Below, in pieces: positions 4,132 through 59,920 of a stretch of DNA of 64,000 nt. Source of the stretch: a virus (lineage: Duplodnaviria > Heunggongvirae > Uroviricota > Caudoviricetes). The translations under genes and the position numbers were made by a program. The notes under the pieces were generated by a model that was not told the origin of the DNA, did not search any database, and was given only the letters and a program-made list of their open reading frames with translations. Location of the stretch: the IMG/VR virus record IMGVR_UViG_3300009093_000042, positions 1 to 64,000 of that record; one strand, given 5' to 3'. Each line of letters starts with the position of its first letter. The stretch's first letter is position 1.

Positions 4132-4355
4132 AAGATGTTTACGCTTTGAGCGAAGGTCAGCCTGCCCTTGGAGCGCCCGGTGATCTGGCGTGCGAATGCT
4201 TTTGTTACCAGGCCCTTCGACGTACGATCGAGAGCGATCCATTTCACTTCATTACGCACGTCGGTCATTGTGGGACATTGAAAAGCGCGCACCTGGTTGC
4301 GCTCGCCCGTTACCACAACGGACCAGTGCCCGACCTTATCGCTGTTGTCGATCAT
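4128..4355 (-). CDS. hypothetical small protein
   Basis: 75-aa ORF coupled by ATGA to the downstream gene. Confidence 0.4.
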   Translation of the reverse strand: MIDNSDKVGHWSVVVTGERNQVRAFQCPTMTDVRNEVKWIALDRTSKGLVTKAFARQITGRSKGRLTFAQSVNIL

Positions 4356-4786
4356 GCGCGCTCAAATGCGTGCCAGACGAGCCGACCGCCGAGCTGTTGA
4401 AATGTTCCGATGTAGCGACGATTGGCTTCTTCCGTAGGATTGCCTGTGCCGATGATCTCAATCTCCCGGCGCTGTTTCGGCGCTTTGGGATTAACCATTG
4501 CCCAGATGGCCGGGGTTTCGCCCTGTACTTGAACGGTCAGGATTTTTGCCCCCTCCGGCATCATCACGTTTTGGATGCCTGTTATTTCAAGAGGAAATTT
4601 CCAGATGGTTTTCGCATCGCCTGCGGGCGATTCTTCTTCCTGGTTCCAGAAATCACTGAGCCATTGCATCTCCTTGGAGTACATGTCGGCCCAAGTAGAA
4701 AGACCCGGCTGAGCGTCATCAAGCAGTGATTTGAGCCGGTTTACGTGCTCACGTATGGTATCGAGGTTTGGGGTGGATGAGTTCAT
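4352..4786 (-). CDS. hypothetical protein (144 aa)
   Basis: Minus ORF with 4-nt overlap to the next gene. Confidence 0.5.
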   Translation of the reverse strand: MNSSTPNLDTIREHVNRLKSLLDDAQPGLSTWADMYSKEMQWLSDFWNQEEESPAGDAKTIWKFPLEITGIQNVMMPEGAKILTVQVQGETPAIWAMVNPKAPKQRREIEIIGTGNPTEEANRRYIGTFQQLGGRLVWHAFERA

Positions 4787-20793: not shown

Positions 20794-20988
20794 ATGAAAT
20801 TTCGCTTAATAGCAGCACCGGTTGAGCGAGGGGACCTAAACAGGATTTTCTCTCTGTTCGAAGTCGCGCAATTCCTCGAAATAGCTGTTGAAGACCTGGC
20901 CCTGCGCGGAAAACTCTCGGGAAACGTCAGCCTGGATGGCTATACTTTCGAGGTTGTTCGCAGCGTGCAGGGTTCAAGTTTCAAATAG
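20794..20988 (+). CDS. hypothetical small protein (plus strand)
   Basis: GGAG sits 5 nt upstream of the ATG. Preceded by a strong GC hairpin. Convergent with the HerA-like gene. Confidence 0.25.
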   Translation: MKFRLIAAPVERGDLNRIFSLFEVAQFLEIAVEDLALRGKLSGNVSLDGYTFEVVRSVQGSSFK

Positions 20989-22734
20989 CGTTGCGCTGGC
21001 TCGGATTCTCAGCTCGCGATCCTGTTCCATCAGGTCGGGAGCGCGCAGGGCTGTTAGCGCGTTTCCAAACGTGCTGGAGTTCACGCTGTATCCCGTCGCG
21101 TCTGAAATCTCCTGGCGCGTGGCAAACTCCGGGAAGCGCGTCAGCAGGTAACTGAAAATCTTTCCCGCTGCGCCGCTCAGCTTATTCACCCAGAGATTTC
21201 TCAGAGCTTCACCTTTTGGCAACGGTTCAAAGTTTTTCAACAGGGCGCGAGCCTCGGGTATTGCAGTCAGCGTGTCGCCGCTGCGGATGATCGCGTTGTT
21301 TTTGGAAAGCTCGGTCAGCCCGTTGCCGAACGTGCTTGAAGTCACGCTGTAGCCGGATAGAAGCGCGGCCTGGCTGCGGGTCCGCCCTTCGGGATAACTG
21401 AGCAGCACGGTCAGAATCGCTGACGCACACTTGGAAAGTCCACCCGAGGATGGATCATGCACCGGCGATGAAAAATCGTGCCGAGTGGCGACAACTGGAG
21501 CCGGGATCGCCTTGGGTGCTACCGGTGTCGCAACCGCCATACTCGTCTTCTGGATCACGATCAATTTGTTTACAATATCGGTGCGTAGCGCTACCGCCTG
21601 ATTGGCCAGCTCAGAGAAGTTCACCACCGTCTTGCTGAAAGTAGTGCAGGCTTCCTCGATTCGCTTCAGAGTTTTTTCCTGCTCGGGCGTTAGCACGGGA
21701 ACTTCGACCTTTTCGATTCGCGTGTCCACGACCGTCACCGGCCTGGGCGCGACAGCGGCCTGTTCCGCTTTTACCAGCTTTTGTTTCAAAACAGCCACTT
21801 GTTGTTTCAAATGGGCCGGATCATTCTCGTTGGCGCGCTCAATCGTTTCACGAATCTCATTTCCCAGGCGCACGAGATCGACCTTGGCCAGCTTTTGCGG
21901 GATGATGACTTTTTCACCTGCCTTGGGCGTGGCTGATGAGTTGAAGGTCCGGCGCTGCCGGATGGTGATCCGTTGAAAGATGCGCAGCCAGCCGGGCGAC
22001 CATATCCAGCCCTCGCCGGTGTGAAGCGATGCCAGGGACTGCATCATGATGTCGCGCTGTTCCTTCGTGCCGTTGCGCTTCACCCAATCGTCGATGGCGT
22101 CCTGGTCCTGGGGCGAGTTGAGCTGAAGTACGATCAACAGTTCGGTCTGAGTGAAGACATTCTTATTGAGCACAGCCGGGCGCTGCGTGATCAGCGTCGT
22201 GCCAATCCCACGGATGCCTCCCCGGCGCACCAGGGCTTCGAAGGCTCCGAGCATTCGCTGCTGGCCGTCCTGGGGTTTCTGGGGAGCGAAAGAGTCGGCT
22301 TCGTCCACGAACAGGTGCAGCGGATTGCGGTTTTGATTTTTACGCCGGTAGAGGCGTTCGGCAAAGTCAGTGGCGAAGCGATCCTGCTGTGCGTTGCTTT
22401 CGGTCGAGGAGAGGTCGATGACGTAGTAGCCAGGATGGTCAACCACCATGTCGGCGATGACCCGGCCTGCCGTATATTCCAGTGGAACGTCCGCGTGCTC
22501 ACCGCCGATGATCACCACTGGCAAACCTTCGCGCAGACCGTTTGCTGATGAACGCAGGCCCCACCAGGCACCGGTCGGATCGAGCACGGCAAACGGCTGT
22601 GACGCCGCCACCAGCTCCTCGGCGATCACCGATCCTGTGTAGGTCTTACCGACCCGGCGCATGGCCATGATGGAACACGTCTGGGTGACGAAATCCAACG
22701 GCAGCGTCAGTTCCTTTGAGATTTTGAGGCTCAT
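20974..22734 (-). CDS. HerA/FtsK-superfamily P-loop NTPase (DUF87-like) with tandem C-terminal winged-helix-like repeats
   Basis: Walker A MAMRRVGKTY, AVLDPTGAWWGL, Walker B LHLFVDEADSF, and GIRGIGTTLITQRP. Two C-terminal repeats GYSV(T/N)SSTFGN(G/A)LT. Confidence 0.6.
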   Translation of the reverse strand: MSLKISKELTLPLDFVTQTCSIMAMRRVGKTYTGSVIAEELVAASQPFAVLDPTGAWWGLRSSANGLREGLPVVIIGGEHADVPLEYTAGRVIADMVVDHPGYYVIDLSSTESNAQQDRFATDFAERLYRRKNQNRNPLHLFVDEADSFAPQKPQDGQQRMLGAFEALVRRGGIRGIGTTLITQRPAVLNKNVFTQTELLIVLQLNSPQDQDAIDDWVKRNGTKEQRDIMMQSLASLHTGEGWIWSPGWLRIFQRITIRQRRTFNSSATPKAGEKVIIPQKLAKVDLVRLGNEIRETIERANENDPAHLKQQVAVLKQKLVKAEQAAVAPRPVTVVDTRIEKVEVPVLTPEQEKTLKRIEEACTTFSKTVVNFSELANQAVALRTDIVNKLIVIQKTSMAVATPVAPKAIPAPVVATRHDFSSPVHDPSSGGLSKCASAILTVLLSYPEGRTRSQAALLSGYSVTSSTFGNGLTELSKNNAIIRSGDTLTAIPEARALLKNFEPLPKGEALRNLWVNKLSGAAGKIFSYLLTRFPEFATRQEISDATGYSVNSSTFGNALTALRAPDLMEQDRELRIRASATLFET

Positions 22735-46688: not shown

Positions 46689-49600
46689 TCAGTGATATAC
46701 CAAAAATGGATTCGTGACGAAATCGCGCTGGAGGAAGTAAATGTCCCCGCTCGAATAGTCGATGGCGATGGAGCTGATATTCGCTCCCGTCGTGAACTCA
46801 CACACAATGGTTTTTCCGACCGGGTCGATCACCGTGACTTCGCCATTCTGGGCCGCTGCAATGATCAGTCCCGACACCGGGTTGTACTTGACATAAACTT
46901 TGTTGAAGACGTTGGAGACGTTCGTGAACGTGTCCACCACAGCGTAGGTGTTGGGATCGAACGAAACAATCGGGTTCGTTGATCCGTCCACCAGGCAGAA
47001 GTAAACCAGCCCTGTCGCCGGGACATAATCCACTTCAAAGTTCGAGTTGACCAGGAAGCTGTTGTTGTTGAGGGTCAGCGCAGGGAGCGCATAAAACAAC
47101 GTGGAGTTGGTCGGCTTCAGGATCAACTGACCAGGCAATCCGAATACGCCGGGCGTTGTTGCAGCAGAAATGGTCGTGGCAACGTCGTTGGTGATCGTGT
47201 TAGTGTGCGGGTCGATCTCGATGATGTGGATTTTGTGATCGCTGTTATTTCCCGCCACGCCGTATATCTTGTCCTGCGCCGCGCTGTAGTAGTAATTCGT
47301 GAGGAAGAACGAGTTGACTGGTTGACCGATCTCAGTGACCACGTTTCCACTGGTGTCGAATACCAACACACCTGCGGACCCGGTGACGAAGAACGTTTGG
47401 GTCGTCGGTGCAAAGGCGCTTCCATCACCGTCCATGTCCCATTCCACGTCGCACGCTGTTTGGGCGAGGACAGTGTTGGTCGATGAGTCGATGAACGTCA
47501 TGATTCCATCATTGGACCGCGTGACGCCGATGATTCTCACTGCGGCATTACGGCTCATCAGGATTTCGCCGTCAACGTTTCCAGTATTATCGAATTGTGT
47601 CACGAACACCGGACACGTCGGCGTGGGCGGAGCGGGCGAGGAGGAGCATGGACTCATAATGGTTCCGTAGGTTACGAAAGCAGGCAGCGTTCCGTCAGAC
47701 ACGGTGAACGATCCATTGAGGATAATGTCTTCGGTCCGATAGGACGTGGTTGCGGTTAGTTTGTTTGAAAACGGCTGAGGATTGCTCAGCGTGTCGTTGG
47801 AGCTGTAAATCTGTGACTCGTGCTGATAGCCGTAGGCCGTTCCCCAACTGCTCATGGTCGCCATCCAGCCGCCCGGAGTGGTTGGATAATCGGTGCCGGA
47901 GGTACCGAACTTCGTGGTCACGACGGAGCCTGCGCCGACTGTCAAACGATACAGTGACGTGTGGAATCGAGTGAGATTCACTTCGCTGATGAACAACTGG
48001 CGCGCCGTTCCCTTCTGGTTGTCACGGATGGCATTGCTCCAGTCAAACAGCAACAGCCAGGAACTCGGGCTGCCGGGCAGTGTGTGCGGCAGATAGAAAT
48101 CGAACGTGTCGGTCTGGCTGAAGTTCGCGCCGGTCTGGTCTGCACAGAGCTTGCCCTGGAAGACGATGTCGCCAACCGTGATGACCACGTTGAACCCAAC
48201 GAAGCTCGTATCGACTTTGCCGATGTTGCCAGACGTGACGCTCAATCGGTAAAAGCCGGGGAGCATCTGGTTGTTGATCTCGAACGCGATTTGGCCGTTG
48301 TTCTTCAGCGCCACCACTGGAGGCGTCTGGGCCAGGCCGAACGTGTTGGGCTGCACCCACGCGTTCACCGTGTTCGTCCCGGACAGGTCAATCACCGTTT
48401 CCTCATTTGCGTAAAGATAGATCGGCGCTGAGGTCGCGGTGCCGGTGTAGGTGCCTGAGTAAACCACGCCGCTGGTATTGACCGAGAGCTGTTTGTGCAG
48501 CGTTGCATCGCTTAGTTCCACTTCCGCGCCAGTCGGCTGGTACGACCCGTTCAAGCTGAAAATCTTTTCCGTGACGAAGGACACGTTTCCGGCCTCGGTG
48601 TTGGCCAAACTGATCTGCCAGACAAAGCCGTCGTCCCCCTTTCTCCAGATGCGATCTCGGCAGGGGTTGGTGGCTTGCAGGGGATTGGGCCACGGAGAGC
48701 CAGTGCCGGTCGAGGCGAGGGTGCCTGCGATGCCAGAGATGGTGCTGCCACTTTCGATCAGCGTCAGCACAAAGCCTGACGGATTGTCAAAGAGCCAGAC
48801 CTTGTTGACGCCAGGATAGTTTCCCTGCCAGGTGGACACTGCCACCGTCCCGTCCGCCGTGAGGGTGTCCCAGACACTTCCCAGAACTTGTTTTGGAGGC
48901 AGCGTGTTGCCGCCGCCTACGCCGGTTTCTTTGTAGCGTGATTGCGCGTCGTAGCGCGCCAGGTAATCGTAGCGCTGAACCCACGCGAGATTGTCCGTAA
49001 TGATCGAAGTGGGCAGTTGGTCAGGGATCACGTAACCGCTCGGCAGCACTTTGACTGCGTAGTGATCGTACGTGTTGACCGATTGCAACCACGTGGGCCG
49101 GTAAAGGCAGGCGGTTGGGCTTGGATTGTGATAGCGCGCCAGCGTCAATTCGTCCTGGGCTTTCGTCACATTCCACAGGCGCAGGTCCTGGATGTCAAAA
49201 GGCGAATTCTGGCAGCTCACTGTCAGATGGTACGGCGTTTCAAAGTCGATCAAGCTGGTCACTGAGATCGTTTGCACCGTGAGGCTGCCGGTCGAGTTCC
49301 AGTAATAAACCGTGAGCGTTTGAACGCCGTCGAATGACCACGCGAAGTAGCTCCATTTCTGGTCGAACACCTGGAACGCTTTGAGATTCACCGTCCCATC
49401 AGAGTAGGTCAGATAGAAATTCAAACGAGGCGTCGTGATTGCTCCCGAGAGTGTGATCTTCAGCGGGCCGGACAAAAGGATGGTCTGTTCGCTGGTGTAG
49501 CTGTTCAAGCCGCGAATCCAGAAACCACCGGAGAACATTTGGCCGAAGCCACGGGCCACCGGGCTGTTCAATAGCAATCCCGGTTGAGCTGCGAGATAAT

Positions 49601-51989
49601 TGCCGCGAACCGGATCAAACTTACGGTCGCCCGAAGCCAGCCCGTCGATGAAAGCGTTTCCAGCGTAGATCGAGTGATCTTCCACCAGAATGGCGTCGAG
49701 CGGCTGCTCATTGAAAGGATACCAGAGCGCCAGACCGTTGCGGTGATGTTTTCCAAAGAACTTCGGAGCGTCCGCCACCAGAACGCCTTGAACCAATCCG
49801 AAATGGTAAAGCTGCCAGCCCGGCTGCATCACACCGTCGAGACCGCCCTGTAATGTGCCGCTGGACGGACGAGTACCGGCGAGATTCAAAAATGTGCCGC
49901 TGAAGGCGATAGCGCGTTGGCCGGGAACGTAATCGTCCAGACTGCGCTCGGCAGTGACAAAGCGAGGAGGATAAGGTCCAGGTACCACGACCTGCACGTC
50001 GTACTGCGCGCCGGTCTGACTGACGACCGAAGCCGTCTGACCCAACCGAATGGTTTCCAGGTCCGGCACTGCCGGGCTGTAGTCGTTCAGGTCAACCAGC
50101 TCGCCGCCGCCCACCAGGCTGCGTCGCCATGGATACTCGTCCGGCATATCCATGGCTGGATCATCCAGAAAATCTTCCGGGCGCTCCTGATAACCGATCT
50201 GGATGCAGTTGGTTCCCGGATTCGAGCGAACGACTTCGGTCGAAGTCGGTTCGAAGACGACGTTGACGATGGTGCCTGTCTGAACCGTGCCGGGGAATCG
50301 AAGTATCCAGCTCGCGTTGCGATAGTCGAATGTGCCGGAAGCCAGCAGGTCGCTGGTCTTCAGCGTCAGGAAGCCGGAGTTCGTGATCGACTGTTCCTGA
50401 TACATGTCAATCGTCCCGGTCTGGAATTGGACGCTGTACGGAGGCGTCGGAAAGTCCGTGATCGTACCGCTGTAAATCGAAGTGCCGCTGTGGGTGATGA
50501 ACAGTTGATCCTTCTCGCAGAAGGCAGCGTAGCCGACCTGGTCTTCGATGAGATAGCCGACGTTGACTTGGCGCGGCGTACGGGTCGCGGGCCGGACTTC
50601 TTCCATCGCGGCCACCACTTGCGCGCCTGCCGCGCTGAGCGCGTCCTGGTCAAATTGACGGCTGGTCAGGTCGGCCTGCACGCGGGGAGAAACAATCGTC
50701 AGGTTGCCGTTCGTGTTGGTGCGCGTGATCCAATCGGCGGTGATCAGTTCCTGTCTGATGGACCCGGACATCCACGGACGAAACGGAGAAACGGCGGTTG
50801 CGCCGAAGTTCGCCGAGGTCGGGTTGTTCACCAGGTCCTTGTTGGCCGTGGCCACGACCGTTCCGAACTGCTCCAGCGCGTGGTCGAAATCCATCGTCAA
50901 CCCGAGATCGAAATAGCTGGTGCGGTATTTGATTGCCGAGAGCCGGTCGGTGATGGAGATGATGCGCGACGTGCCATTGTCGATGGACGTGAAGTTGATT
51001 TCCAGGCCGTTGAAGCTCGACCCAGACGAGATTGCCTTGAACAGCAGCCCGCTGCCGGGCGGTTCAACTGACGCCTGCTTTTCCGGGCCGCCGCCCACCA
51101 GGATGTAAGGCGCGCCTGCCGGATCGGGATCGGTTGGTGCCGTTCCCACCACGCTGACACTGACAAACGGATTGAACCCGTTCACAATATCGGTGTAAAA
51201 ACGCGTGTCGCTTTGTCCAAAGCGCGCTGAGGCAGTGCCGGTCCAAGTGAAAAAGGGACCGTCGTTCAGTACCCACGGATCGTAAAAGTTGTCGCGGGCC
51301 TGCTTCGGGAAATAGTCAGGAATCGTGGCGAAGTCCTGGTTGTTTCGCGGATCACCGATGTCGTTGGCGATACGCGGGCTGAGTCGCCCCCAAAGCGGAC
51401 TCATTCGCACGTCGTCAAAACCCAGAAGCCTGCCGAGCGTTTCGAAGGATTGCGCCGTGCCTTTGAACTGCAAACGCGGGAACCAGGTCGCCAGGAGACG
51501 GCGCGCATCACTCTGCGCGTTGTCCGGGTCCATCGCGGCTGTCTGGTAAAGCACCGCGCCAACGGTTTCAGCCAAGTAACCCAGGATGTTGGCGTCAACC
51601 AGCCGGAGCATGTCCACTCCGTACGCTGCCGAGATCAGGACGTGGTTTTCGTCAAGCTGGAGCTGGTCGGCAGCCCAGGTGAGAAGTGCTGGATCGTTCG
51701 CAGCCGGAGTATCGCTCTGGAAATCCAGCGAGCGGTTGTAAACTTTTCCCTGCGGCGACTGCACCTGGCAGAGGACCACGTTGTTGACGGGAGTACCGGA
51801 ATTGTCAGTCTCCGGCAGTCCGTTTGCCGTGACCAGAAGTTCGAGCTTGGAGACGTACGATCGCGTGTCGTCGATGCGATCCTGATAGCCGCCAATGACC
51901 GCCTGAATCAACCCTTGTTCATCAAGGTCGATTATGCCTTCGGGCAGAAGGTCATACAGGTAATCCTCAATTAGATTCTGCAAGCTCAC
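46689..51989 (-). CDS. giant virion protein (1766 aa); internal-core or baseplate-fibre candidate
   Basis: Uninterrupted 5.3-kb ORF. Its position before the fibre genes resembles T7 gp16-gp17 order. Confidence 0.65.
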   Translation of the reverse strand: MSLQNLIEDYLYDLLPEGIIDLDEQGLIQAVIGGYQDRIDDTRSYVSKLELLVTANGLPETDNSGTPVNNVVLCQVQSPQGKVYNRSLDFQSDTPAANDPALLTWAADQLQLDENHVLISAAYGVDMLRLVDANILGYLAETVGAVLYQTAAMDPDNAQSDARRLLATWFPRLQFKGTAQSFETLGRLLGFDDVRMSPLWGRLSPRIANDIGDPRNNQDFATIPDYFPKQARDNFYDPWVLNDGPFFTWTGTASARFGQSDTRFYTDIVNGFNPFVSVSVVGTAPTDPDPAGAPYILVGGGPEKQASVEPPGSGLLFKAISSGSSFNGLEINFTSIDNGTSRIISITDRLSAIKYRTSYFDLGLTMDFDHALEQFGTVVATANKDLVNNPTSANFGATAVSPFRPWMSGSIRQELITADWITRTNTNGNLTIVSPRVQADLTSRQFDQDALSAAGAQVVAAMEEVRPATRTPRQVNVGYLIEDQVGYAAFCEKDQLFITHSGTSIYSGTITDFPTPPYSVQFQTGTIDMYQEQSITNSGFLTLKTSDLLASGTFDYRNASWILRFPGTVQTGTIVNVVFEPTSTEVVRSNPGTNCIQIGYQERPEDFLDDPAMDMPDEYPWRRSLVGGGELVDLNDYSPAVPDLETIRLGQTASVVSQTGAQYDVQVVVPGPYPPRFVTAERSLDDYVPGQRAIAFSGTFLNLAGTRPSSGTLQGGLDGVMQPGWQLYHFGLVQGVLVADAPKFFGKHHRNGLALWYPFNEQPLDAILVEDHSIYAGNAFIDGLASGDRKFDPVRGNYLAAQPGLLLNSPVARGFGQMFSGGFWIRGLNSYTSEQTILLSGPLKITLSGAITTPRLNFYLTYSDGTVNLKAFQVFDQKWSYFAWSFDGVQTLTVYYWNSTGSLTVQTISVTSLIDFETPYHLTVSCQNSPFDIQDLRLWNVTKAQDELTLARYHNPSPTACLYRPTWLQSVNTYDHYAVKVLPSGYVIPDQLPTSIITDNLAWVQRYDYLARYDAQSRYKETGVGGGNTLPPKQVLGSVWDTLTADGTVAVSTWQGNYPGVNKVWLFDNPSGFVLTLIESGSTISGIAGTLASTGTGSPWPNPLQATNPCRDRIWRKGDDGFVWQISLANTEAGNVSFVTEKIFSLNGSYQPTGAEVELSDATLHKQLSVNTSGVVYSGTYTGTATSAPIYLYANEETVIDLSGTNTVNAWVQPNTFGLAQTPPVVALKNNGQIAFEINNQMLPGFYRLSVTSGNIGKVDTSFVGFNVVITVGDIVFQGKLCADQTGANFSQTDTFDFYLPHTLPGSPSSWLLLFDWSNAIRDNQKGTARQLFISEVNLTRFHTSLYRLTVGAGSVVTTKFGTSGTDYPTTPGGWMATMSSWGTAYGYQHESQIYSSNDTLSNPQPFSNKLTATTSYRTEDIILNGSFTVSDGTLPAFVTYGTIMSPCSSSPAPPTPTCPVFVTQFDNTGNVDGEILMSRNAAVRIIGVTRSNDGIMTFIDSSTNTVLAQTACDVEWDMDGDGSAFAPTTQTFFVTGSAGVLVFDTSGNVVTEIGQPVNSFFLTNYYYSAAQDKIYGVAGNNSDHKIHIIEIDPHTNTITNDVATTISAATTPGVFGLPGQLILKPTNSTLFYALPALTLNNNSFLVNSNFEVDYVPATGLVYFCLVDGSTNPIVSFDPNTYAVVDTFTNVSNVFNKVYVKYNPVSGLIIAAAQNGEVTVIDPVGKTIVCEFTTGANISSIAIDYSSGDIYFLQRDFVTNPFLVYH

Positions 51990-52009: not shown

Positions 52010-54598
52010 TTAACTGACATAGATTTTTCGACCTTTGGCGATGAACCAGGTCGAACCGGCGTTTCCGTAGGTGGTGGAGTAAAGCCGATAGAGCTTTCCG
52101 TTAAAAGCAATTCTGTAACCGGTGTTGAGTTTTGCCCCGTAACCGGTGGCCGTTTGCTGAAGTCCCCGTTTCTGCCATGGTGTCGGATCGTGAATCAATT
52201 CCTTTCGGTCCGCATAAATCCGTGGAAATTGACCGTTGGGAGAAGTTTCCACGTCCGCATCAGTAAAAAGCTTGTAACCATTTCCGTCGCTCGCAACGTC
52301 TTTGGCATCGTCAGCTTCCGCCTCCTCGTCGAACCCTTCCTGCACTTGAGCCAGCTTTCCGTGATACAGGCTGCCTTTGGGCAACGCGGTGGCTTCGTCA
52401 CTGTAGGCTTCTTCATCGAGCAACGGTTGAAGTCCCGAAAACCAGAATTCCACAATGTGGCCATCCGGCAGCACCGCATTGAACAAATCCTCGTCAGCCC
52501 GCCCCCACCACTTGCTGTTCTCGGCCAGGACGTGCATCGCGGCAGCAACGTTGTGACCGTCGCCCAGGGGCGTTAGGAGGATGTCGAGGTCTTTTTCTGA
52601 TTCACCGTGCCGATCCACACTTCCGACGATTTCTGCTTCATAGCCTACCGCTTCCAGCGCCGGGCGAACCATTTGAAGCCACGTTTCCGCCTGCTGGCGC
52701 GTCCACGGTGTAGCTTCATGCGTTCCCGGAGCTTTATTAGCCGTGTAGTCAGAAAGAGAGGACTCTCCAACAGATTTTGAAGCGTTCATCATGTACTGAT
52801 AAGCGTACTTCAAAAATTGCTTTTGGTTTTCCGGGGTTAAGCTATTCCAGAAAACTGGACGACTCGACGGTGACTGTAAAATTTTCATCGCTCCGTCAAA
52901 GCCGTGTTTTTCTATTTTTCTTGCAATAAAACCCTTGGCAAAAGCCATCACTTCATGAGGATCGTTGAAATAGCCTTTTTCGCGAAAATCCGGCTTCTGC
53001 TTTTGTTTATGATAGCTGGCCACCATCTTAGGAATGCTGCCCGGTCTCATGCGGCCCATCTGGCCTCGGTGTACAAGTTCATGCTGGATCATCCGCCGCA
53101 GATAGGATAGGAGGGTATCATCATTGCCTCGGGCCATCCATTGCGGCATACGGATGAGGATTCGGTTATGCACGAAGCCAAAAGCGGCGGCGGGAGAGCT
53201 GGACGGGAGAAAGCTTAATTCTTCCGTTTTCACTTTTTTCAGCGCACTCAGCCAGTTAATTTTTCCTTCGCTGTTATCAACTTCCTGCTGAGCTTTTTTA
53301 ATCTGCTGGAGAGCGAGCTGAGAAAGCCTTTCCACTTCTTCCTCTTTGGGTTCCACAACGTCTTCTGTGATCTGTTCCATCTCGATGTTTGGCTTACCGA
53401 GAAACAGTTTCGTTTTGGCTTTAGTTAGGCTGCTGAAGATCACAGACTTCACCAGGAATCGGGCATTGGTGTGCTCATCTGGTGCCATGAGGCGTTTGCC
53501 AACCAACTCGCGGCAGGTGCCCTTGGTCACGTAGGCCACGGTCATGTGCGGGTGGTATTCCGGGTACGTGTCCGTGCATTCCAGTTCCGCACTGATGCGA
53601 GCATTCAATTTGAAAAGCCCTTCGCCGGAGATGTCGAATTTCACCACATCGAACTTCTCATTTTCAAACAGCGAGATTGCTCCCACTTCGATCTCGAACG
53701 GCTCGGTTTGTTCGATGATCTTCAGAAGTTCCGGGCTTGGGTCTTTTTCGTGGAGTCCGAATTTAACCGTCACGTGGACTTCGTCCTCGCGCCCAAAACC
53801 CTCCGGGTCCTCCGGGTCGGTGTAGAGCTTATCGTCGGTGATGAACATCCGGCTGAACTGCTGCACTGCGTCCACGATGTCTGGCGACGCCGGGGCCATG
53901 ACACAGGAAAACTTCCGGGCCTCCATGATGCTCTCGATCTGCGCGTCCACGCCGCCCTGGTCGGGGTAAAGCCATTCGCTCAGCATCTCAGGAGTAATCC
54001 TTTCGACAATGCCGGAGGTATCGACCGCCTGATCAGCGCCAGTATCTTCAAACCATTCCGCGCCGCTCATATCGCGGGCGTCTTCAAACAGACCGCGCAA
54101 GCGCTCGTCTTCAATGAACTCCTCGTCGAGATCGGGAAACTTTTGCTTCAGGTTGACGAGGAATTCCTGGCGGTAGTGGTGCTTCCAGGCTTCGTCGCGT
54201 TTCAGCGATTCCACTGTGCGGTATTCTTCTTCGTCCAGCAGGCCGGAGGTTTTCAGCTTCTTGATCTGTTCGAACAGGCTGGCCGCCATGTCCGAATCCA
54301 ACTGGCCGAGTGACGATTCCGGTATGCCGACGATGACTGCGTTGAAGTTGGGGCCGGTGCTTGGGACGATGACGGGATAGTTCTTGATGAGGTAGCGGGC
54401 GTTGGCGCGGTCGGCGGTGTTGCCGGTATAGTCACTGAACTCGACGAGCTTCCAGACTTTGTGCTCGGGATCGTAAATCAGATTCTCATCCAGGAAGGCG
54501 CGCACTTTTTCCGGGTCCACGTCCCGAAGTTCACGCATGAAATCCGCGCTTTCTTGGTCGTCGCTTTCAATCAGTCGCCGCTTGGTAAGGTTTTTCAT
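52010..54598 (-). CDS. multidomain protein with 2H phosphoesterase (LigT-like) signature, HExxH motif and Pol-beta-type nucleotidyltransferase motif
   Basis: EVHVTVKFGLH and HPHMTVAYV form a pair of H-x-T-x motifs. MIQHELVHRGQ is the HExxH motif. IVGSVDRHGESEKDLDILL is a G[SG]..DhDh NTase motif. Confidence 0.6.
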   Translation of the reverse strand: MKNLTKRRLIESDDQESADFMRELRDVDPEKVRAFLDENLIYDPEHKVWKLVEFSDYTGNTADRANARYLIKNYPVIVPSTGPNFNAVIVGIPESSLGQLDSDMAASLFEQIKKLKTSGLLDEEEYRTVESLKRDEAWKHHYRQEFLVNLKQKFPDLDEEFIEDERLRGLFEDARDMSGAEWFEDTGADQAVDTSGIVERITPEMLSEWLYPDQGGVDAQIESIMEARKFSCVMAPASPDIVDAVQQFSRMFITDDKLYTDPEDPEGFGREDEVHVTVKFGLHEKDPSPELLKIIEQTEPFEIEVGAISLFENEKFDVVKFDISGEGLFKLNARISAELECTDTYPEYHPHMTVAYVTKGTCRELVGKRLMAPDEHTNARFLVKSVIFSSLTKAKTKLFLGKPNIEMEQITEDVVEPKEEEVERLSQLALQQIKKAQQEVDNSEGKINWLSALKKVKTEELSFLPSSSPAAAFGFVHNRILIRMPQWMARGNDDTLLSYLRRMIQHELVHRGQMGRMRPGSIPKMVASYHKQKQKPDFREKGYFNDPHEVMAFAKGFIARKIEKHGFDGAMKILQSPSSRPVFWNSLTPENQKQFLKYAYQYMMNASKSVGESSLSDYTANKAPGTHEATPWTRQQAETWLQMVRPALEAVGYEAEIVGSVDRHGESEKDLDILLTPLGDGHNVAAAMHVLAENSKWWGRADEDLFNAVLPDGHIVEFWFSGLQPLLDEEAYSDEATALPKGSLYHGKLAQVQEGFDEEAEADDAKDVASDGNGYKLFTDADVETSPNGQFPRIYADRKELIHDPTPWQKRGLQQTATGYGAKLNTGYRIAFNGKLYRLYSTTYGNAGSTWFIAKGRKIYVS

Positions 54599-55068
54599 GG
54601 CCAGTTAGTCCCCGGAGGCACGTACTGCGGCGGAACAGAGGTCACTGTCTCCGCGAAGTATTCGGGTCGGTTCACCGTGCCCCACATCGCTATAAAAGCA
54701 TTTCTCCACCGAATCACGTCGTTCGTCCCGATGTAAACGTATTCCGAAAAGGAATCAGGACCGCCCACGTCCACGGAGAATCGTCCCCATGGATATGCGT
54801 CCATGTACAACTGGATGGTATCAAGATCGGATACACCTTGACCAGCAAAGACGTTCGAATCGCCATCGCCCAACTCCGGTCCTAGTGGAGCCATCCGTAA
54901 CTCAGCGTTAATGATCCAGGAACCTCTCCCCACGAGGAAGTTGATCTGAGCGGTCGAGAGAGGTTTGTACTGTCCCGTCTGGATCAGCTTTTCAATGTAG
55001 CTGGCCGCGAGACCGAAAACTTGTAAATTGACTGCCATTATTGTTGTCCCAATATCCGCTGACGCCAC
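54595..55068 (-). CDS. hypothetical protein (157 aa)
   Basis: Minus ORF. Confidence 0.5.
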   Translation of the reverse strand: MASADIGTTIMAVNLQVFGLAASYIEKLIQTGQYKPLSTAQINFLVGRGSWIINAELRMAPLGPELGDGDSNVFAGQGVSDLDTIQLYMDAYPWGRFSVDVGGPDSFSEYVYIGTNDVIRWRNAFIAMWGTVNRPEYFAETVTSVPPQYVPPGTNWP

Positions 55069-55448
55069 GATCTGAAGTCCCTGCTCTTGATCATTTTCTT
55101 GGCATCGGCCAGCTCAGTGGTGTCCCCGCGTTTTACTAGCACTCCGTCCGGGCTGTCAGGAGTGACCTTAAATTCATAAATGACGTATTCATCCACGGTT
55201 GACTTCTGACCCCACCCAAGATGATGAACCTTGTGGTTGTAAACCACGATGAAGTTTCCGTATTTGTAGATTTTCTTGGTGCCGTGGAATCGCGTGGCCC
55301 TGCGGTTGAAGAAAAGAGGTTCGGCTGCCTTGATCTCATCCAGAGTGTAGATTCTGTCCTCTGGTTGAGCAGAGAGCATTTTCAAATCGTCTGAGCCAGA
55401 CATGTCATCGTCTGCTTCCGTGACGAACGCTAGAATTTCCCTTATCAC
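55038..55448 (-). CDS. hypothetical protein (136 aa)
   Basis: Minus ORF. Confidence 0.45.
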   Translation of the reverse strand: MIREILAFVTEADDDMSGSDDLKMLSAQPEDRIYTLDEIKAAEPLFFNRRATRFHGTKKIYKYGNFIVVYNHKVHHLGWGQKSTVDEYVIYEFKVTPDSPDGVLVKRGDTTELADAKKMIKSRDFRSWRQRILGQQ

Positions 55449-55456
55449 TGCCGTAA

Positions 55457-55699
55457 CTACGTTTCTCTGGAAGTCCGTGAGACCCTTGATCTCGCTAGGA
55501 GAGATTCAAAGAACTCCTGGGCCAGTCGGCAGGCGCAGGTAGGATGGTTCTTTTGAACTTCCTCTGCGCAGTCGATGCAGACCACCAGGACTGTTTCCAA
55601 ATCACTGAACTTGAGAGCGACCGCTTCTGACACTGGAACAGCGTTACGACATTTGTCGCATTTCAGCTCCGGTCTTCCGAATTCATTTTGCGTAAGCAT
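55457..55699 (-). CDS. zinc-ribbon small protein
   Basis: CDKC...CIDC...CAC pattern. A hairpin lies just upstream of its start. Confidence 0.45.
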   Translation of the reverse strand: MLTQNEFGRPELKCDKCRNAVPVSEAVALKFSDLETVLVVCIDCAEEVQKNHPTCACRLAQEFFESLLARSRVSRTSRET

Positions 55700-55705
55700 T
55701 TTACC

Positions 55706-55762
55706 AGCGACCGCCGTTAGGCGGTCCGCGAGACGCTTCGAGAATTTTGTTTTTCCAGGAAC
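55706..55762. promoter_or_regulatory. GC hairpin and AT-rich inverted repeat in the putative origin region
   Basis: GACCGCC-gtta-GGCGGTC hairpin, then TTTTGTT-tttccagg-AACAAAA inverted repeat. Confidence 0.4.
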
Positions 55763-55847
55763 AAAACTTTTCCCGTAACTGCGCTGTTAATACTGTTTCT
55801 AACTGACCAACTTCCAGAACAGCCTGAACGACTTAAGTATGAAAAGG

Positions 55848-55975
55848 CATCCGAGTTTGCAAATCAGCCATCCGACTTTGTAGTTCAACCATCCGACTTT
55901 GCGGATCAAGGGTCCGACTTTGCAGGTGAGCCATCCGAGTTTGCGGAACAAAGGTCCGAGTTTGCGGGTGACAGC
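55848..55975. repeat. six tandem 21-bp direct repeats (iteron-like), core TCCGA(G/C)TTTGC
   Basis: Core hexamer starts at about 55850, 55871, 55892, 55913, 55934 and 55955, an exact 21-bp period. The array abuts the stop of the winged-helix gene. Confidence 0.7.
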
Positions 55976-56695
55976 TCATACGTCTATGTCGTTGAGCACC
56001 TTAACGTCCGTGCATTGCCTCATATCCTGCTGAAGCACGGACTCAGGAAAGTAGGTCTCAGCGGTCACATCCAGGAGCCGATCCAAGGTGGATTTTGGTA
56101 AGCTCCAGACGGGAATCCGGCCACCTTTCCGACCGCATAAAATGATCTCTTTGGTGTCGATTAGGTGCTTGAACCCGCGCTCGACCGTCCACCGCGTCAG
56201 GTAATAGTGGCGTTCGGCCCATTTGCCCGGCGTGATGTAGTGGGTTGCTTTCTTGTTGGCATCCTCCAGGGATTCCTGCTTCTTCCAGTTTTCGATGATC
56301 CAGTGTGCCAGGTTGTGGTGGATGATTGCGGGGACTATGCCGTGAATCATGGTGAATTCGACCTCGAAGCAGAAGCGCGCCCCGTGGCTCACATCGTCCG
56401 GCAGGTTGAAGTCGGGGTTGTACTTGCCGATCATCCGGTAGGTGTAGTGCAACATCCCTCGTTGCTGCGACCGGGTAATGATGGGCAGTTCCTCGCCGTG
56501 GCCGCGCAAGAGCCGGTTGAGCGCGGAGCGCAGGCGCTGTTTGCCCATGTAGGGATAGCGCTTCAGGAGTTCGTCAAGGGTAATGGTCGTACTGCCGAAA
56601 TTTTCGTCGCGCCAGCTCAGGTAAGCGTACACGAGTGCGGCGTCGAGGCCATACAGCTTGGCCATCGCGGGTGAAAAGCGGTGAATTGTACTCAC
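55976..56695 (-). CDS. putative replication initiator or DNA-binding protein (winged-helix-like N-terminus)
   Basis: N-terminal LVYAYLSWRDENFGSTTITLDELLKRYPYMGKQRLRSALNRL resembles initiator winged-helix domains. The 21-bp iterons begin at its stop codon. A helicase gene is next upstream. Confidence 0.45.
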   Translation of the reverse strand: MSTIHRFSPAMAKLYGLDAALVYAYLSWRDENFGSTTITLDELLKRYPYMGKQRLRSALNRLLRGHGEELPIITRSQQRGMLHYTYRMIGKYNPDFNLPDDVSHGARFCFEVEFTMIHGIVPAIIHHNLAHWIIENWKKQESLEDANKKATHYITPGKWAERHYYLTRWTVERGFKHLIDTKEIILCGRKGGRIPVWSLPKSTLDRLLDVTAETYFPESVLQQDMRQCTDVKVLNDIDV

Positions 56696-56730
56696 TCAGT
56701 GCAGAACGGAAACCAGTTCTAAGCCGCTGG

Positions 56731-58542
56731 TCAGCCCAACTTTTCGTAAACTTTTGCTTGCGAAATACTGTCCGGTCCGAGCAGTGGATGGACGAAGGTG
56801 TAACCCCGGATGTTGAATAGTTTGTCGAAGACCCGTTTGCATCCGCGCCGGAGAATTTCGTGCTGGTTGTCGAAGAACCAGGTGATCTCCGCTTCATTGT
56901 TTACTTTTTTCTTACGAATGAAGCGACCGATAATCTGGTTGGCGCGCTCCCAGTCGCCAACGTAGTCAGCGATCACGCCGCCTCGAATTTCATTGATGGA
57001 AACGCCTTCCTGCACGAGTGGCGAGATCAGCACGCCGCCCGGTGTCTGCCGGAACCAATCGAAGCATTGGTCGCGCTGGCGTGGGCTGTGTTCACCGAGC
57101 AGTACCCGGACGTTGTGTTTGCCCACGGCGGCTTCAATCAGGCCCTGCAAGATGTAGATGTGGAGCGTGCGCGTGCAGACCACCAGCGTCGGATATTTCT
57201 TTTCGACGCTGTAGTAGCGCGTCCAATCCGTGATCATGTCATTGCGCTCGCCGAAGCGAATGAGCGCCCGGTCGTTGACTCGTTCCAGCAGGCAGTAAGT
57301 GGACTCGATTTCGTAAACAGATTCGTCACCGGGAAATTGGAACGTGTGAAAGCCGTCAATCGTCACCGGCACTTCCACGTCTTTCCAGCGCGCCGATTTC
57401 ACGGTCTCGGTGGCACCGTCTTCAGTCACCCTCTCACCTTCGTCCACGGTGTCTTCCAACACGCGTTTTTTCTGCGTCTTGATGTCGCCGTTTTTATCCA
57501 GCTCGTAAACCGGTCCAATGTAGGTTCCCTTTTTCCATTCGTTGCCGACGAGGGCGTAGCCGGGTGTGCCGGGAATGGCCTGGTGCGGCAGCGTCGAGAA
57601 GCGATTCCTCCAGGCCGGATTCTCGACAATGTAAATCTTGGGTTTGGCCGACCTGCCGATGTCGATGTAAACGCCGACCGGGACCGTGTAGCGGATCGGA
57701 CCGAGCAGCCCCTGGATGCGCGCCATGCTGTCAGGATCGTTGTCGCGCCGGGTGTCCGAGGCTCCCAGGCGAAAGAAGCACGGCAGCTTCATTAGGACCG
57801 CAGAGCTGGTCTTGGAGCAGGCGTGATGAGATTCGTCGTAGAGCACGCCGATAAACGAGCTGAACCAGTCTGTGCTCGCCAGTTTCGCGAAATGCTTCCA
57901 CAGCATCGCGGCGGTCGAGATGACCATGTCCTTTCCGGTGTTGTCCCCTTTACTTCCGCCGTACTGCGTGATGTCCCAGTCGGGCAGGAACTTCGTGATT
58001 TCCTGGTAAGCCTGGCGCACCAGGCGCTCTCGGTCGGCGATGTAGAGAAAGCGCGCTTCGTTGCCGTACCGGCGTTTGATCATGGCGGCAGCCGCTGCGA
58101 ACATGGCGGTTTTGCCACCGTTCACGGCGATTTTATTCACGCCCATGCCGCTGCGCAGCCAGAAGGCGATGGACTCGCGCTGATACTCATCGAGCGGGAA
58201 GTCAGCCTGGATGAGGTCATCAGGCAGGTCATCAGCGACGAGGCTGGCAAAAGGAGACTTAAGGCACTCTCTGGTATTGACCAGGAAGTTGAGGTTGCGC
58301 GCCGTCTGGATGACTTTGTCTTTGTGGCCGCGCAGGCAGTCGGCGCGCCCGATGTCGAGAATGCGGATCGGAGAAATGTAGCCGTCCCATCCTTCAGCTC
58401 CGTCCGTTAAGTCGTAAGCTTTGTAGCGAGGGGAATGGAAATAGCCCTTCGGATGATACCGAAGTTTGAAATGAATGGCCTTGATTTCGTTGTCTTCGCC
58501 GCTTAAGCGAAGGCGCGTTGGCCCCTCGACAATGTTTATCAT
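56731..58542 (-). CDS. SF2 DExH-box helicase
   Basis: Motif I AVNGGKTAMF, motif II VLYDESHH, motif III-like LGASDT. Promoter motif upstream. Confidence 0.6.
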   Translation of the reverse strand: MINIVEGPTRLRLSGEDNEIKAIHFKLRYHPKGYFHSPRYKAYDLTDGAEGWDGYISPIRILDIGRADCLRGHKDKVIQTARNLNFLVNTRECLKSPFASLVADDLPDDLIQADFPLDEYQRESIAFWLRSGMGVNKIAVNGGKTAMFAAAAAMIKRRYGNEARFLYIADRERLVRQAYQEITKFLPDWDITQYGGSKGDNTGKDMVISTAAMLWKHFAKLASTDWFSSFIGVLYDESHHACSKTSSAVLMKLPCFFRLGASDTRRDNDPDSMARIQGLLGPIRYTVPVGVYIDIGRSAKPKIYIVENPAWRNRFSTLPHQAIPGTPGYALVGNEWKKGTYIGPVYELDKNGDIKTQKKRVLEDTVDEGERVTEDGATETVKSARWKDVEVPVTIDGFHTFQFPGDESVYEIESTYCLLERVNDRALIRFGERNDMITDWTRYYSVEKKYPTLVVCTRTLHIYILQGLIEAAVGKHNVRVLLGEHSPRQRDQCFDWFRQTPGGVLISPLVQEGVSINEIRGGVIADYVGDWERANQIIGRFIRKKKVNNEAEITWFFDNQHEILRRGCKRVFDKLFNIRGYTFVHPLLGPDSISQAKVYEKLG

Positions 58543-58556
58543 CTCTGGAGAGAACC

Positions 58557-58576
58557 AAAAAAGTAAACAAATTATT
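58557..58576 (-). promoter_or_regulatory. conserved promoter-like element upstream of helicase gene
   Basis: Minus strand TAA-TTTGTTTACTTTTTTGG, then a 20-nt leader to the ATG. Confidence 0.45.
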
Positions 58577-59900
58577 TTGCTGGAGGCTCAGGAGTGGGGA
58601 TAATCTTTCTGAGCTGTTCGATCACATCCGCTGGACCGACAGCGCCCAGACACTCGCAAATTTGGCGGTCTTTGCGCGGCGGGCAGTATCTCGGGAACGT
58701 ACCCGCGTAAGCGAAGCACGGTGAAAATTGGCAGACTTCCTTTTTCCACACCGGGAAGTGATTTTTGTAGTACTTCACGCGGTTCATGGGATTGCACGGA
58801 CCCCAGAGGCCGACGCAAGGCGTTTCCAGCGACCCGGCGATGTGGACCATCATCGAGTCTGGACCGATCACGACCGCTGCCCGGCTGGCCACGGCCCATA
58901 GCTCGCGCAGGCTGGCCGCCTGGTAAATCTGGATGTTGTGCCGGAGGGTGCCGGAGCCTTTGCACTTGGGACAAATTTCTTGCTTTTTCCTGCCTGCTGC
59001 GGCGATGGACTCAGTGGCTTTCGTCACTTCGGCCAGGGCCTTGTCCGCTGATACGTTCGCCATGTCGTGTACGATCGGCACGGGCGGCGGTTCGACCACG
59101 TTGGATTCAAGGCGGCCCTTGCCGTTGCATTTCTGGCATTCGACGGCCTTTCGGTACTGTTCGGGAACGAACTTGTCGTAGAGTGCCAGCCAGTGAACGT
59201 TCGGGTAGGCTTCCGCGACTTTGCTCAGCAGGTAGGCGCTTTCGTTGGGCGGCATACAGCGCACCGGGTTGGCCGCTGAGAGTTGGTACATGCCGATGGG
59301 TTTTCCCTGGAACTGCATGGCGGCCTGCATCTCCAGGAAGGTGAAGTTCGGGTGATAGACTTTTAGTTTCGGGTCCACTGCGTCCGGGTTGATGCCGACG
59401 CGCCGGAGCATTTGGTCGAGCGGATGGAGCTGATCCACATGTTCTTCGGCATTGACGACAGTCTCGAAAATCACCCAGTAATCGTACATCTTAAACTGCT
59501 CGTACTGGATGGGGATGTTTTGGATGGACTTAACGAAAGGCATGTTCCACCAGCAGCTCACGTTGCCGGGATCGACCAGCACGTGGACTTCAAAGCCGTA
59601 GGACGCGAGGATGCGCGCAAACGGCCAGGTCATCACCTGGTCGCCGTAGCCGCCGCTGCCGTTGTAGAGTAGCAGCTTCTGGGTGCCGGGCTTCTTCGCG
59701 TTTGCGTTGAAATTGGGAATGCGGTTCTCGATGCGGCTCCACTTAAAGAGCCGGTCTTTCACTTCTTCCTTCGCGATCATGCGGTTGAAGTGAGATGCGG
59801 CGATCACGTAATCACGCCCGGCTTCGAAGACCATGTTGGTCGCGCCTGCGGATTTTTCCATCGTCAGTGAAACGTGTTCTGCAAAAGTGACAAGATTCAT
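58572..59900 (-). CDS. GT9-family (heptosyltransferase-like) glycosyltransferase with zinc-ribbon insertions
   Basis: IGPDSMMVHIAGSLETPCVGLWGPCNP matches the GT9 C-terminal D..H.A....P.V.LFGP motif. CQKCNGKG and CPKCKGSG inserts. ORF-track start 59906 is TTG, trimmed to ATG at 59900. Confidence 0.55.
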   Translation of the reverse strand: MNLVTFAEHVSLTMEKSAGATNMVFEAGRDYVIAASHFNRMIAKEEVKDRLFKWSRIENRIPNFNANAKKPGTQKLLLYNGSGGYGDQVMTWPFARILASYGFEVHVLVDPGNVSCWWNMPFVKSIQNIPIQYEQFKMYDYWVIFETVVNAEEHVDQLHPLDQMLRRVGINPDAVDPKLKVYHPNFTFLEMQAAMQFQGKPIGMYQLSAANPVRCMPPNESAYLLSKVAEAYPNVHWLALYDKFVPEQYRKAVECQKCNGKGRLESNVVEPPPVPIVHDMANVSADKALAEVTKATESIAAAGRKKQEICPKCKGSGTLRHNIQIYQAASLRELWAVASRAAVVIGPDSMMVHIAGSLETPCVGLWGPCNPMNRVKYYKNHFPVWKKEVCQFSPCFAYAGTFPRYCPPRKDRQICECLGAVGPADVIEQLRKIIPTPEPPAK

Positions 59901-59920
59901 GCCCAAAAGAACACGAACAA

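Follow-up and report, generated by a model that had tools for sequence, protein, structure and literature searches.

Replication origins built from direct repeats together with an AT-rich element are situated inside the gene of the initiator itself in the phages lambda and SPP1 (PMC7466680, PMC6316719); lambda carries four such repeats, or iterons, and the Stx phages six (PMC7466680). Here we describe a similar arrangement in a stretch of 64,000 nucleotides from an uncultured tailed phage (IMG/VR record IMGVR_UViG_3300009093_000042, positions 1 to 64,000; hereafter the window), in which six 21-bp repeats directly follow the gene for a 239-aa protein with two winged-helix domains. From the sequence we infer that this array is probably the iteron part of a phage replication origin, at which the neighbouring protein would bind as initiator and replication would begin.

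The repeat array and its candidate initiator

The core TCCGA(G/C)TTTGC starts on the plus strand at 55850, 55871, 55892, 55913, 55934 and 55955, at intervals of exactly 21 bp. Five of the six cores match TCCGASTTTGC exactly, and the unit at 55871 has one mismatch (TCCGACTTTGT, ending in TTTGT). Tandem Repeats Finder (TRF) places the array at 55848-55971 with a period of 21, 5.6 copies and a score of 103 (a period of 42 scores 143), which makes it the top-scoring tandem repeat of the window by a wide margin and the sole strong one. Outside the array the core is matched, with one mismatch allowed, at only two isolated places in the 64 kb, against a chance expectation of ~3. The TRF score and this scarcity of other matches rule out a chance repeat. 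Two other candidates were also rejected: a CRISPR array, as the unit is too short and there are no spacers, and a packaging site, as the terminase gene is ~34 kb distant.

Because nearly all genes of the window lie on the minus strand, we describe the array on that strand, where its unit reads xxxCCGCAAA(C/G)TCGGA(T/C)xxxx. In this orientation it opens right behind the TGA of the 239-aa gene (55976..56695), whose product ends in KVLNDIDV, and closes ~150 nt upstream of the gene 55457..55699. An iteron origin is expected to hold at least three regularly phased direct repeats of ~17-22 bp, and there are six at 21 bp here. A preliminary description of this locus had reported six repeats at an exact 21-bp period, beginning at the stop codon of a protein with a winged-helix-like N-terminus; the core positions, TRF and the TGA immediately beside the last unit bear this out, and structure prediction extends the last point to two tandem domains. 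The coordinates of the array and of the features around it are collected in Table 1.

Table 1. Features of the array locus, with positions in the window.
Feature	Position	Strand	Remarks
Six-iteron array, 21-bp units	55850..55975		Homologous arrays in L001, L002, L088
239-aa protein, candidate initiator, with a tandem pair of winged-helix domains and a short C-terminal tail	55976..56695	-	AlphaFold2, PHROG 11233
48-codon open reading frame across the array, ATGA overlap with initiator stop, probably no gene	55833..55979	-	Codon changes, L002 frame
27-nt block TGG(T/C)CAGTTAGAAACAGTATTAACAGC	55783..55809	-	Constant bar one position in three relatives (initiators 68-85% identical)
AT-rich stretch, candidate DNA unwinding element	55739..55839		35-45% GC (40-nt windows); whole window 55%
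Two degenerate 17-18-nt direct repeats, GGGAAAAGTTTTGTTCC / TGGAAAAACAAAATTCTC	55739-55774		Clearer in L001, L002
GC-rich hairpin GCG-G-ACCGCC-TAAC-GGCGGT-CGC (minus strand)	55707..55729		No T-run behind
80-aa zinc-ribbon protein, CxxC-x23-CxxC	55457..55699	-	Purifying selection, no family match
Superfamily 2 (SF2) helicase, 603 aa; ResIII, Helicase_C, DEAD; PHROG 16	56731..58542	-	Adjoins initiator also in L001, L041, L063
444-aa protein, several CxxC zinc motifs	58572..59906	-	Upstream of helicase also in L063 (61% identity), L041

The AlphaFold2 model of the 239-aa protein, built on a 62-sequence alignment, reaches a predicted local distance difference test score (pLDDT) of 86.5 and a predicted template modelling score (pTM) of 0.81, with winged-helix domains at about residues 4-88 and 108-198. 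Both domains open with H/R-x-F-x-x-x-x-A-x-x-x-G, and this likeness in sequence suggests that the pair may have arisen by internal duplication. While no match was found in Pfam or NCBIfam, residues 109-181 match PHROG 11233, 'replication initiation protein' (E 2.1e-11). Among the predicted viral structures of BFVD it comes closest to entries that bear the name of replication initiator or replication protein, at E 5e-5 to 1e-3; the top one is a 'Replication initiator protein' (E 5e-5, template modelling (TM) score 0.54), and others are the 'DNA replication protein' of Lactobacillus phage phiLdb, a 'Replication protein' and, weakly, a 'Replication protein O'. The closest solved folds found by Foldseek in the PDB are regulators of the MarR/ArsR type, and a profile search against PDB sequences returned winged-helix matches only, all of them insignificant.

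An exhaustive profile search found 94 cluster representatives of this family (E <= 1e-3) among 1.84 billion. Family proteins span 200-700 aa, the homologous part being N-terminal; 61 of the 62 scanned match PHROG 11233 (best E 6e-29), and a few additionally match PHROGs called 'replication initiation', 'O-like' (weakly) or 'DnaD-like helicase loader', or Pfam HTH_36. The three downstream proteins of the window (80, 136 and 157 aa) have no homology to the C-terminal parts of the longer members. Close homologs are very few: among 5.8 billion proteins there are three, namely the window's own and those of the loci L001 (85% identity) and L002 (68%), and a fourth close locus, L088, is a near-identical strain. 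The window DNA resembles none of 50,697 phage records, tblastn of the 239-aa protein gave no match in phages or in plasmids, the family consensus gave none in 72,556 plasmids, and searches of viral contigs and of genome contigs returned no close relative. The only cultured relatives found are siphoviruses like Vibrio phage SSP002, which the family consensus reaches by tblastn at E of about 5e-4 to 6e-4.

Repeats in related genomes

In L001, L002 and L088 a 21-bp array stands directly after the initiator stop codon, as it does in the window, with six units in L001 and five in L002. The arrays of the window, L001 and L002 align without internal gaps. Their cores are CCGCAAA(C/G)TCGGAT in the window, CGCCAAAWYCGKAT in L001, that is CGCCAAA(TT/TC/AC)CG(G/T)AT, and CGACAAAACCGCATGG in L002, and CAAAnnCGnA is constant in every unit of the three except for a single CAGA unit in L002. 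Several spacers between the cores are common to the window and L001 (for example ATGGCTCAC, ACCyTTGAT and ATGGTTGAm), with units gained and lost, and from one genome to another the cores differ in all copies simultaneously. Concerted change of the core on a partly kept scaffold is the pattern to be expected if a binding site and its protein co-evolve. As a separate observation, L088 has one single-nucleotide polymorphism in iteron 3, at ~1243 (equivalent to ~55925 of the window), where CACCTGCAAAGT becomes CACCCGCAAAGT and the CCG left arm found in other units is given back.

Arrays of the same core type occupy the same place with respect to the DNA-binding domains in L001, L002, L003, L006, L008, L032, L041, L063 and SSP002. 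Every relative with readable DNA has three to six repeats at a period of 20-21 bp, with a C(A/C)AAA(A) core, 3' of the part that encodes the winged helices. These arrays are always on the gene strand and have GC-rich arms around the CAAA(A) tract; what varies is their place, either behind the stop codon or within the gene, and there they can be read in any of the three frames. L003 and L006 were found by protein homology alone, and in both the array falls within the gene, immediately 3' of its winged-helix portion: the CGGCCAAAAGGA array of L003 has two to three copies of CATCCGGCCAAAAGGACA at a 20-bp period, and the GCGCCAAAASGGAA array of L006 has four copies of GCGCCAAAA(C/G)G(G)AA at 20 bp together with one outlier. 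At 166-3497 of L006 this 432-aa family member with internal 20-bp iterons comes directly after an integrase gene and an excisionase-like HTH_17 gene, a context which suggests that the same type of initiator and origin also serves small integrative elements.

The converse search started from the DNA. IMG/VR viral contigs were scanned for three GCCAAAA motifs at a period of 20-21 bp, and in four of the 80 mixed loci obtained (L008, L032, L041 and L063) a family gene overlaps or abuts the array on the same strand, which is far above chance for such a rare family. The iterons of L032 and L008 are palindromic (CCGCCAAAATGGCGG) and are the most lambda-like of the arrays seen. The L063 initiator stops (after VPVLDDPD) 29 nt ahead of its array, similar to the arrangement in the window. 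Both the adjacent cognate initiator gene and the inheritance of repeats together with its family, as one expects of an iteron origin, are therefore found.

The cultured relatives include SSP002 (NC_041910). Its gp055, a 'replication initiation protein', contains three unannotated direct repeats, ACCGACAAAATGGCG (CGACAAAATGGCG-type), inside the gene at 4328-4418 of our extract L089 (~37298-37388 of the record), just 3' of the winged-helix part. A stretch of 25% GC follows, and downstream of gp055 come genes for a DnaC-like helicase loader, for Pol I and for a helicase. The repeats and the AT-rich stretch probably form an origin of this cultured phage that its record leaves unannotated.

The gap between the initiator and the 80-aa gene had been called non-coding. 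It is not free of open reading frames (ORFs), since it holds the 48-codon ORF of Table 1 and a second one of 50 codons (55799..55951); neither behaves as a gene. We considered whether the repeats could code, either for a 48-aa heptad peptide or, through frameshift or re-initiation, for a C-terminal extension of the initiator, with selection acting on the peptide. In the window, L001 and L002 alike, the 48-codon ORF is open and has the ATGA overlap; the Joint Genome Institute (JGI) annotation counts it as a gene in L002; and in each of the three an A precedes the TGA, despite a different last codon. In addition, P0004 and similar relatives translate the array as a C-terminal tail, which in P0004 reads HRQNGTP-HRQNGTP-HRQKGTP-DRQKGTP and corresponds to CAC CGC CAA AAC, and with it to the L001 core.

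The codon changes speak against selection on a peptide. Compared with L001, the 48-codon ORF has 3 synonymous and 21 non-synonymous changes (differences by codon position 5/17/18) and so lacks purifying selection; the corresponding counts are 79 and 35 (30/12/97) for the initiator gene and 26 and 15 (13/8/30) for the downstream 80-aa gene. Alignment with L002 requires a gap of 22 nt instead of 21, so that the frame is shifted relative to the DNA core and the peptide is unrelated (RDKTAWL vs PQTRMxx). That the frame is open at all says little, because a unit of 21 bp automatically keeps any stop-free frame open. Across the family every one of the three frames is used for the core, or it is left untranslated: the L041 initiator reads through its 20-bp array as TAKTQ / PPKPK / HRQNP, and the same core appears in relatives as HRQN, PPK or AK(S/T). 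A significant 7-residue periodicity is seen in 17 of 98 family proteins, in 15 of these at residues 226-302, after the second winged-helix domain; at the control periods of 6, 8 and 9 residues one to three proteins are significant, and at a period of 5 there are ten. The periodic peptides (AAKSExQ, EAKTKxx, PPKGQxT, NPDANLx, DMSGSNP and others) are mutually unrelated, and several are what GCCAAAA would yield in different reading frames.

Because the cores are translated into unrelated peptides across frames, the entity conserved in the sequences compared here is the DNA repeat and no peptide, and we consider a coding function of the array most improbable. Rfam covariance models run over 55300-56200 gave no match at E <= 1. 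The preliminary description had held that repeats found in a coding frame in related genomes would speak against an origin. Such repeats do occur in several relatives, yet they are no argument against one, because the lambda and SPP1 origins are themselves intragenic and the three frames are used interchangeably.

The rest of the gap and the gene neighbourhood

Past the array, along the direction of transcription, there follow a spacer of ~40 nt, the 27-nt block, the degenerate direct repeats and the GC hairpin. An AT-rich tract after the iterons is common to the window, L001, L002, L063, L003, SSP002 and lambda, and the order of iterons, AT-rich tract and GC palindrome is found again in L063. 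The 27-nt block is present in a single copy, which rules out a repeated phage promoter, and outside the window it was found only in the near-identical strain; a promoter, a host-factor site and part of the unwinding region are all candidates for its role. A scan of 54500-57500 for sigma-70 promoters and intrinsic terminators gave nothing relevant, and the block does not resemble a sigma-70 promoter.

The direct repeats are recognised by TRF in L002 (period 17, 2.8 copies). At this place the preliminary description had noted an AT-rich inverted repeat, TTTTGTT/AACAAAA (55745-55751 / 55760-55766); it is present but specific to the window, while the relatives hold the 17-18-nt direct repeats there. 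The GC hairpin that it also named lies at the same place in all three close relatives, with an altered inner stem in L002 (ACGCC/GGCGT). Single-sequence folds give a hairpin in each relative with unremarkable z-scores, and RNAalifold detected no covariation, on a MAFFT alignment in which L002 is misaligned. Folded as single-stranded DNA, the whole gap has no special structure (z -0.6).

With these elements a working origin can be pictured. The initiator would bind each iteron, possibly with one winged-helix domain per half-site, and the period of 21 bp, or two helical turns, would line up all the proteins on the iterons, and the A-tracts with them, along a single face of the helix. Binding on the same face could bend or wrap the DNA into an O-some-like complex, and the resulting strain may open the adjacent AT-rich stretch at 55739-55839, where the helicase would be loaded. 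An origin beside its initiator gene would also keep protein and site linked as one specificity cassette.

Alternatively, the array could be an operator or roadblock through which a two-winged-helix regulator controls the read-through of its own operon or a promoter of the downstream genes, from the 80-aa gene onward to the structural genes. The array does have the helicase and initiator genes on one side and, on the other, a long series of downstream genes in the same orientation, the constant 27-nt block, possibly a promoter, comes after it, and the nearest solved folds are the MarR/ArsR-type regulators; autoregulation is moreover known for iteron-binding initiators, so that both roles could coexist. 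In many relatives, however, the array is deep inside the protein's own coding region and would make a poor operator there. Together with the PHROG matches and viral structural neighbours, which are replication proteins, the SSP002 homolog, which adjoins a helicase loader within a cluster of replication genes, and the lack of a detectable sigma-70-like promoter in 54500-57500, this makes an operator function rather unlikely in our view.

Next upstream of the initiator is an SF2 helicase, as previously described, with ResIII, Helicase_C and DEAD matches. L063 and L041, IMG/VR contigs of 238 kb and 37 kb, share with the window the order 444-aa protein, helicase, initiator and array (L063 4205-8270, L041 3-3944). 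Helicase identity to the window is 60% in L063 and 44% in L041, while that of the initiator is only 31% and the iteron cores differ; from the sequences this looks like exchange or rapid divergence of a specificity cassette made of initiator and origin. In L001, L002 and L088 the 80-aa protein directly follows the array, despite a different upstream context in L002; it might be part of the replication module or act as a small regulator. In L002 (1-935) oppositely oriented genes, one with a faint match to an IS1595 transposase, replace the helicase before the unit of initiator, array and zinc-ribbon gene, and since these upstream genes differ, the unit occurs in more than one genomic context.

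Phased direct repeats next to the gene of a DNA-binding protein are also a feature of parC/parS-type centromeres and of iteron incompatibility loci. On this view the winged-helix protein would bind the array as a centromere-like partition site or an incompatibility site, in the service of segregation or copy control of a plasmid-like prophage instead of initiation. The layout fits such a site, but the neighbouring genes scanned encode no ATPase of the ParA/ParM type and no ParB domain, the window encodes a terminase (20974..22734) and tail-fibre-like proteins of a tailed phage and has no match to plasmid records, and the family annotations and gene context indicate replication. We regard a partition function as very unlikely.

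Assuming that the array is an origin, a bolder proposal may be made. The initiator might consist of two winged-helix domains only, without a domain that recruits a helicase, and work with the SF2 helicase, perhaps also with the 444-aa or the 80-aa zinc protein, in place of a DnaB-type helicase and its loader. At the same time the unit of initiator, origin and zinc-ribbon gene might behave as an exchangeable specificity cassette, given its other context in L002 and its divergence in L063 and L041, which is far faster than that of the helicase. Taken jointly, we hold these two suggestions to be unlikely; if true, they would describe a stripped-down initiator whose iteron origin is opened and primed by a non-canonical route.

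Some further observations concern genes of this region. The 444-aa protein has DnaJ-type CXXCXGXG and anti-TRAP-like zinc motifs and a weak C-terminal match to glycosyltransferase 9. At 52010-54598 (minus strand) an 862-aa protein combines a domain like 2'-5' RNA ligase/LigT phosphoesterases (residues ~270-385) with a C-terminal PHROG 3436 domain; this is an unusual architecture, with a faint baseplate-wedge match, and the counterpart position in L001 has a 664-aa protein with the same Pfam domain. Finally, a 1766-aa ORF at 46689-51989 (minus strand) has no Pfam or PHROG match.

Comparison with known origins

Several results weigh against an origin at the array and have to be set beside the evidence for it. 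The GC-skew analysis proposed in the preliminary description gave no inflection of the cumulative skew at ~55.8 kb, in a weak test that covers 64 of ~102 kb and is uninformative with almost every gene on the same strand. The 64-kb window shows neither a DnaB-type helicase nor a loader, and there are no DnaA boxes near the array. The AT-rich stretch is only moderately AT-rich (35-45% GC vs 23% in lambda), and L032, L008 and L006 have no clear AT-rich tract behind their arrays. As for the protein, it stops ~40 residues past the second winged-helix domain and has no C-terminal helicase-recruiting domain; no experimentally studied member of its family was found, SSP002 gp055 included, and PHROG 11233 seems to owe its 'replication initiation' label to similarity and gene context. 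Significant homology to the classical initiators was not found either: hhalign of the family profile with lambda O gives a probability of 0.1 and the lambda O family Phage_rep_O (PF04492) is not matched, nor is Rep_3 (PF01051), to which there is a weak resemblance of fold. With all this considered, an iteron origin still seems to us the probable function of the array.

The preliminary description had likened the locus to iteron origins of the lambda-O or plasmid Rep type. As regards the way in which it would work, the comparison is supported by the PHROGs of the family, the viral structural neighbours of the protein, the arrays that travel with the family and the AT-rich tract, whereas membership in either family is not supported. 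Similar to the lambda origin, the locus has phased iterons with an A-tract (CAAAA) centre between GC-rich arms (TCCCTCAAAACGAGGGA in lambda), an AT-rich tract past the iterons in the direction of initiator transcription, and a position bound up with the initiator gene, immediately 3' of the part that encodes the DNA-binding domain. As in lambda and lambdoid phages, iterons and initiator specificity diverge jointly between related phages. It differs from lambda in that its protein has two winged-helix domains and no C-terminal domain of the P-binding type, its array lies behind the stop codon and not in mid-gene, the period is exactly 21 bp where lambda has intervals of 20, 24 and 23, and no P/DnaC-like loader gene is next to the array.

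The origin oriL of Bacillus phage SPP1 and its binding protein, the replisome organiser G38P, offer a second parallel, with direct repeats as well as an AT-rich unwinding element in or beside the gene of the origin-binding protein (PMC6316719); phages of Gram-positive bacteria have similar organisers with internal origins. In SPP1, however, a loader (gp39) and a DnaB-type helicase (gp40) adjoin, while the neighbour in the window is an SF2 helicase. The Rep_3 initiators (pi of R6K, RepE of F and RepA of pPS10) share two tandem winged-helix domains in one polypeptide and in-phase iterons of 17-22 bp next to an AT-rich region. Foldseek matches in the PDB include iteron-bound pi (2nra) and RepE co-crystals, although these are weak (E 0.02-0.03, TM 0.35-0.42), and the element described here is a tailed phage. 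SSP002 (Mardecavirus) is related more directly: its second winged-helix domain is homologous, and repeats and an AT-rich tract follow just 3' of it. Its gp055 is longer (339 aa), with the repeats inside the gene and irregular spacing of 28 and 48 bp.

For a group of uncultured phages of at least ~100 kb that otherwise lack annotated replication genes, the locus provides a concrete candidate origin together with its initiator. A family that has no Pfam model gains a functional hypothesis and a DNA signature, 20-21-bp repeats whose core is of the GCCAAAA type, just 3' of a winged-helix coding region, by which origins might be annotated in phages, cultured ones like Vibrio phage SSP002 among them, and in integrative elements. 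Our understanding of how iteron origins work is unchanged by this array. Phage iteron origins linked to the gene of their initiator are a known kind, and the novelty lies in the member, with an uncharacterised family without a Pfam model, a GCCAAAA-type iteron signature and a stop codon that may fall before, within or after the array.

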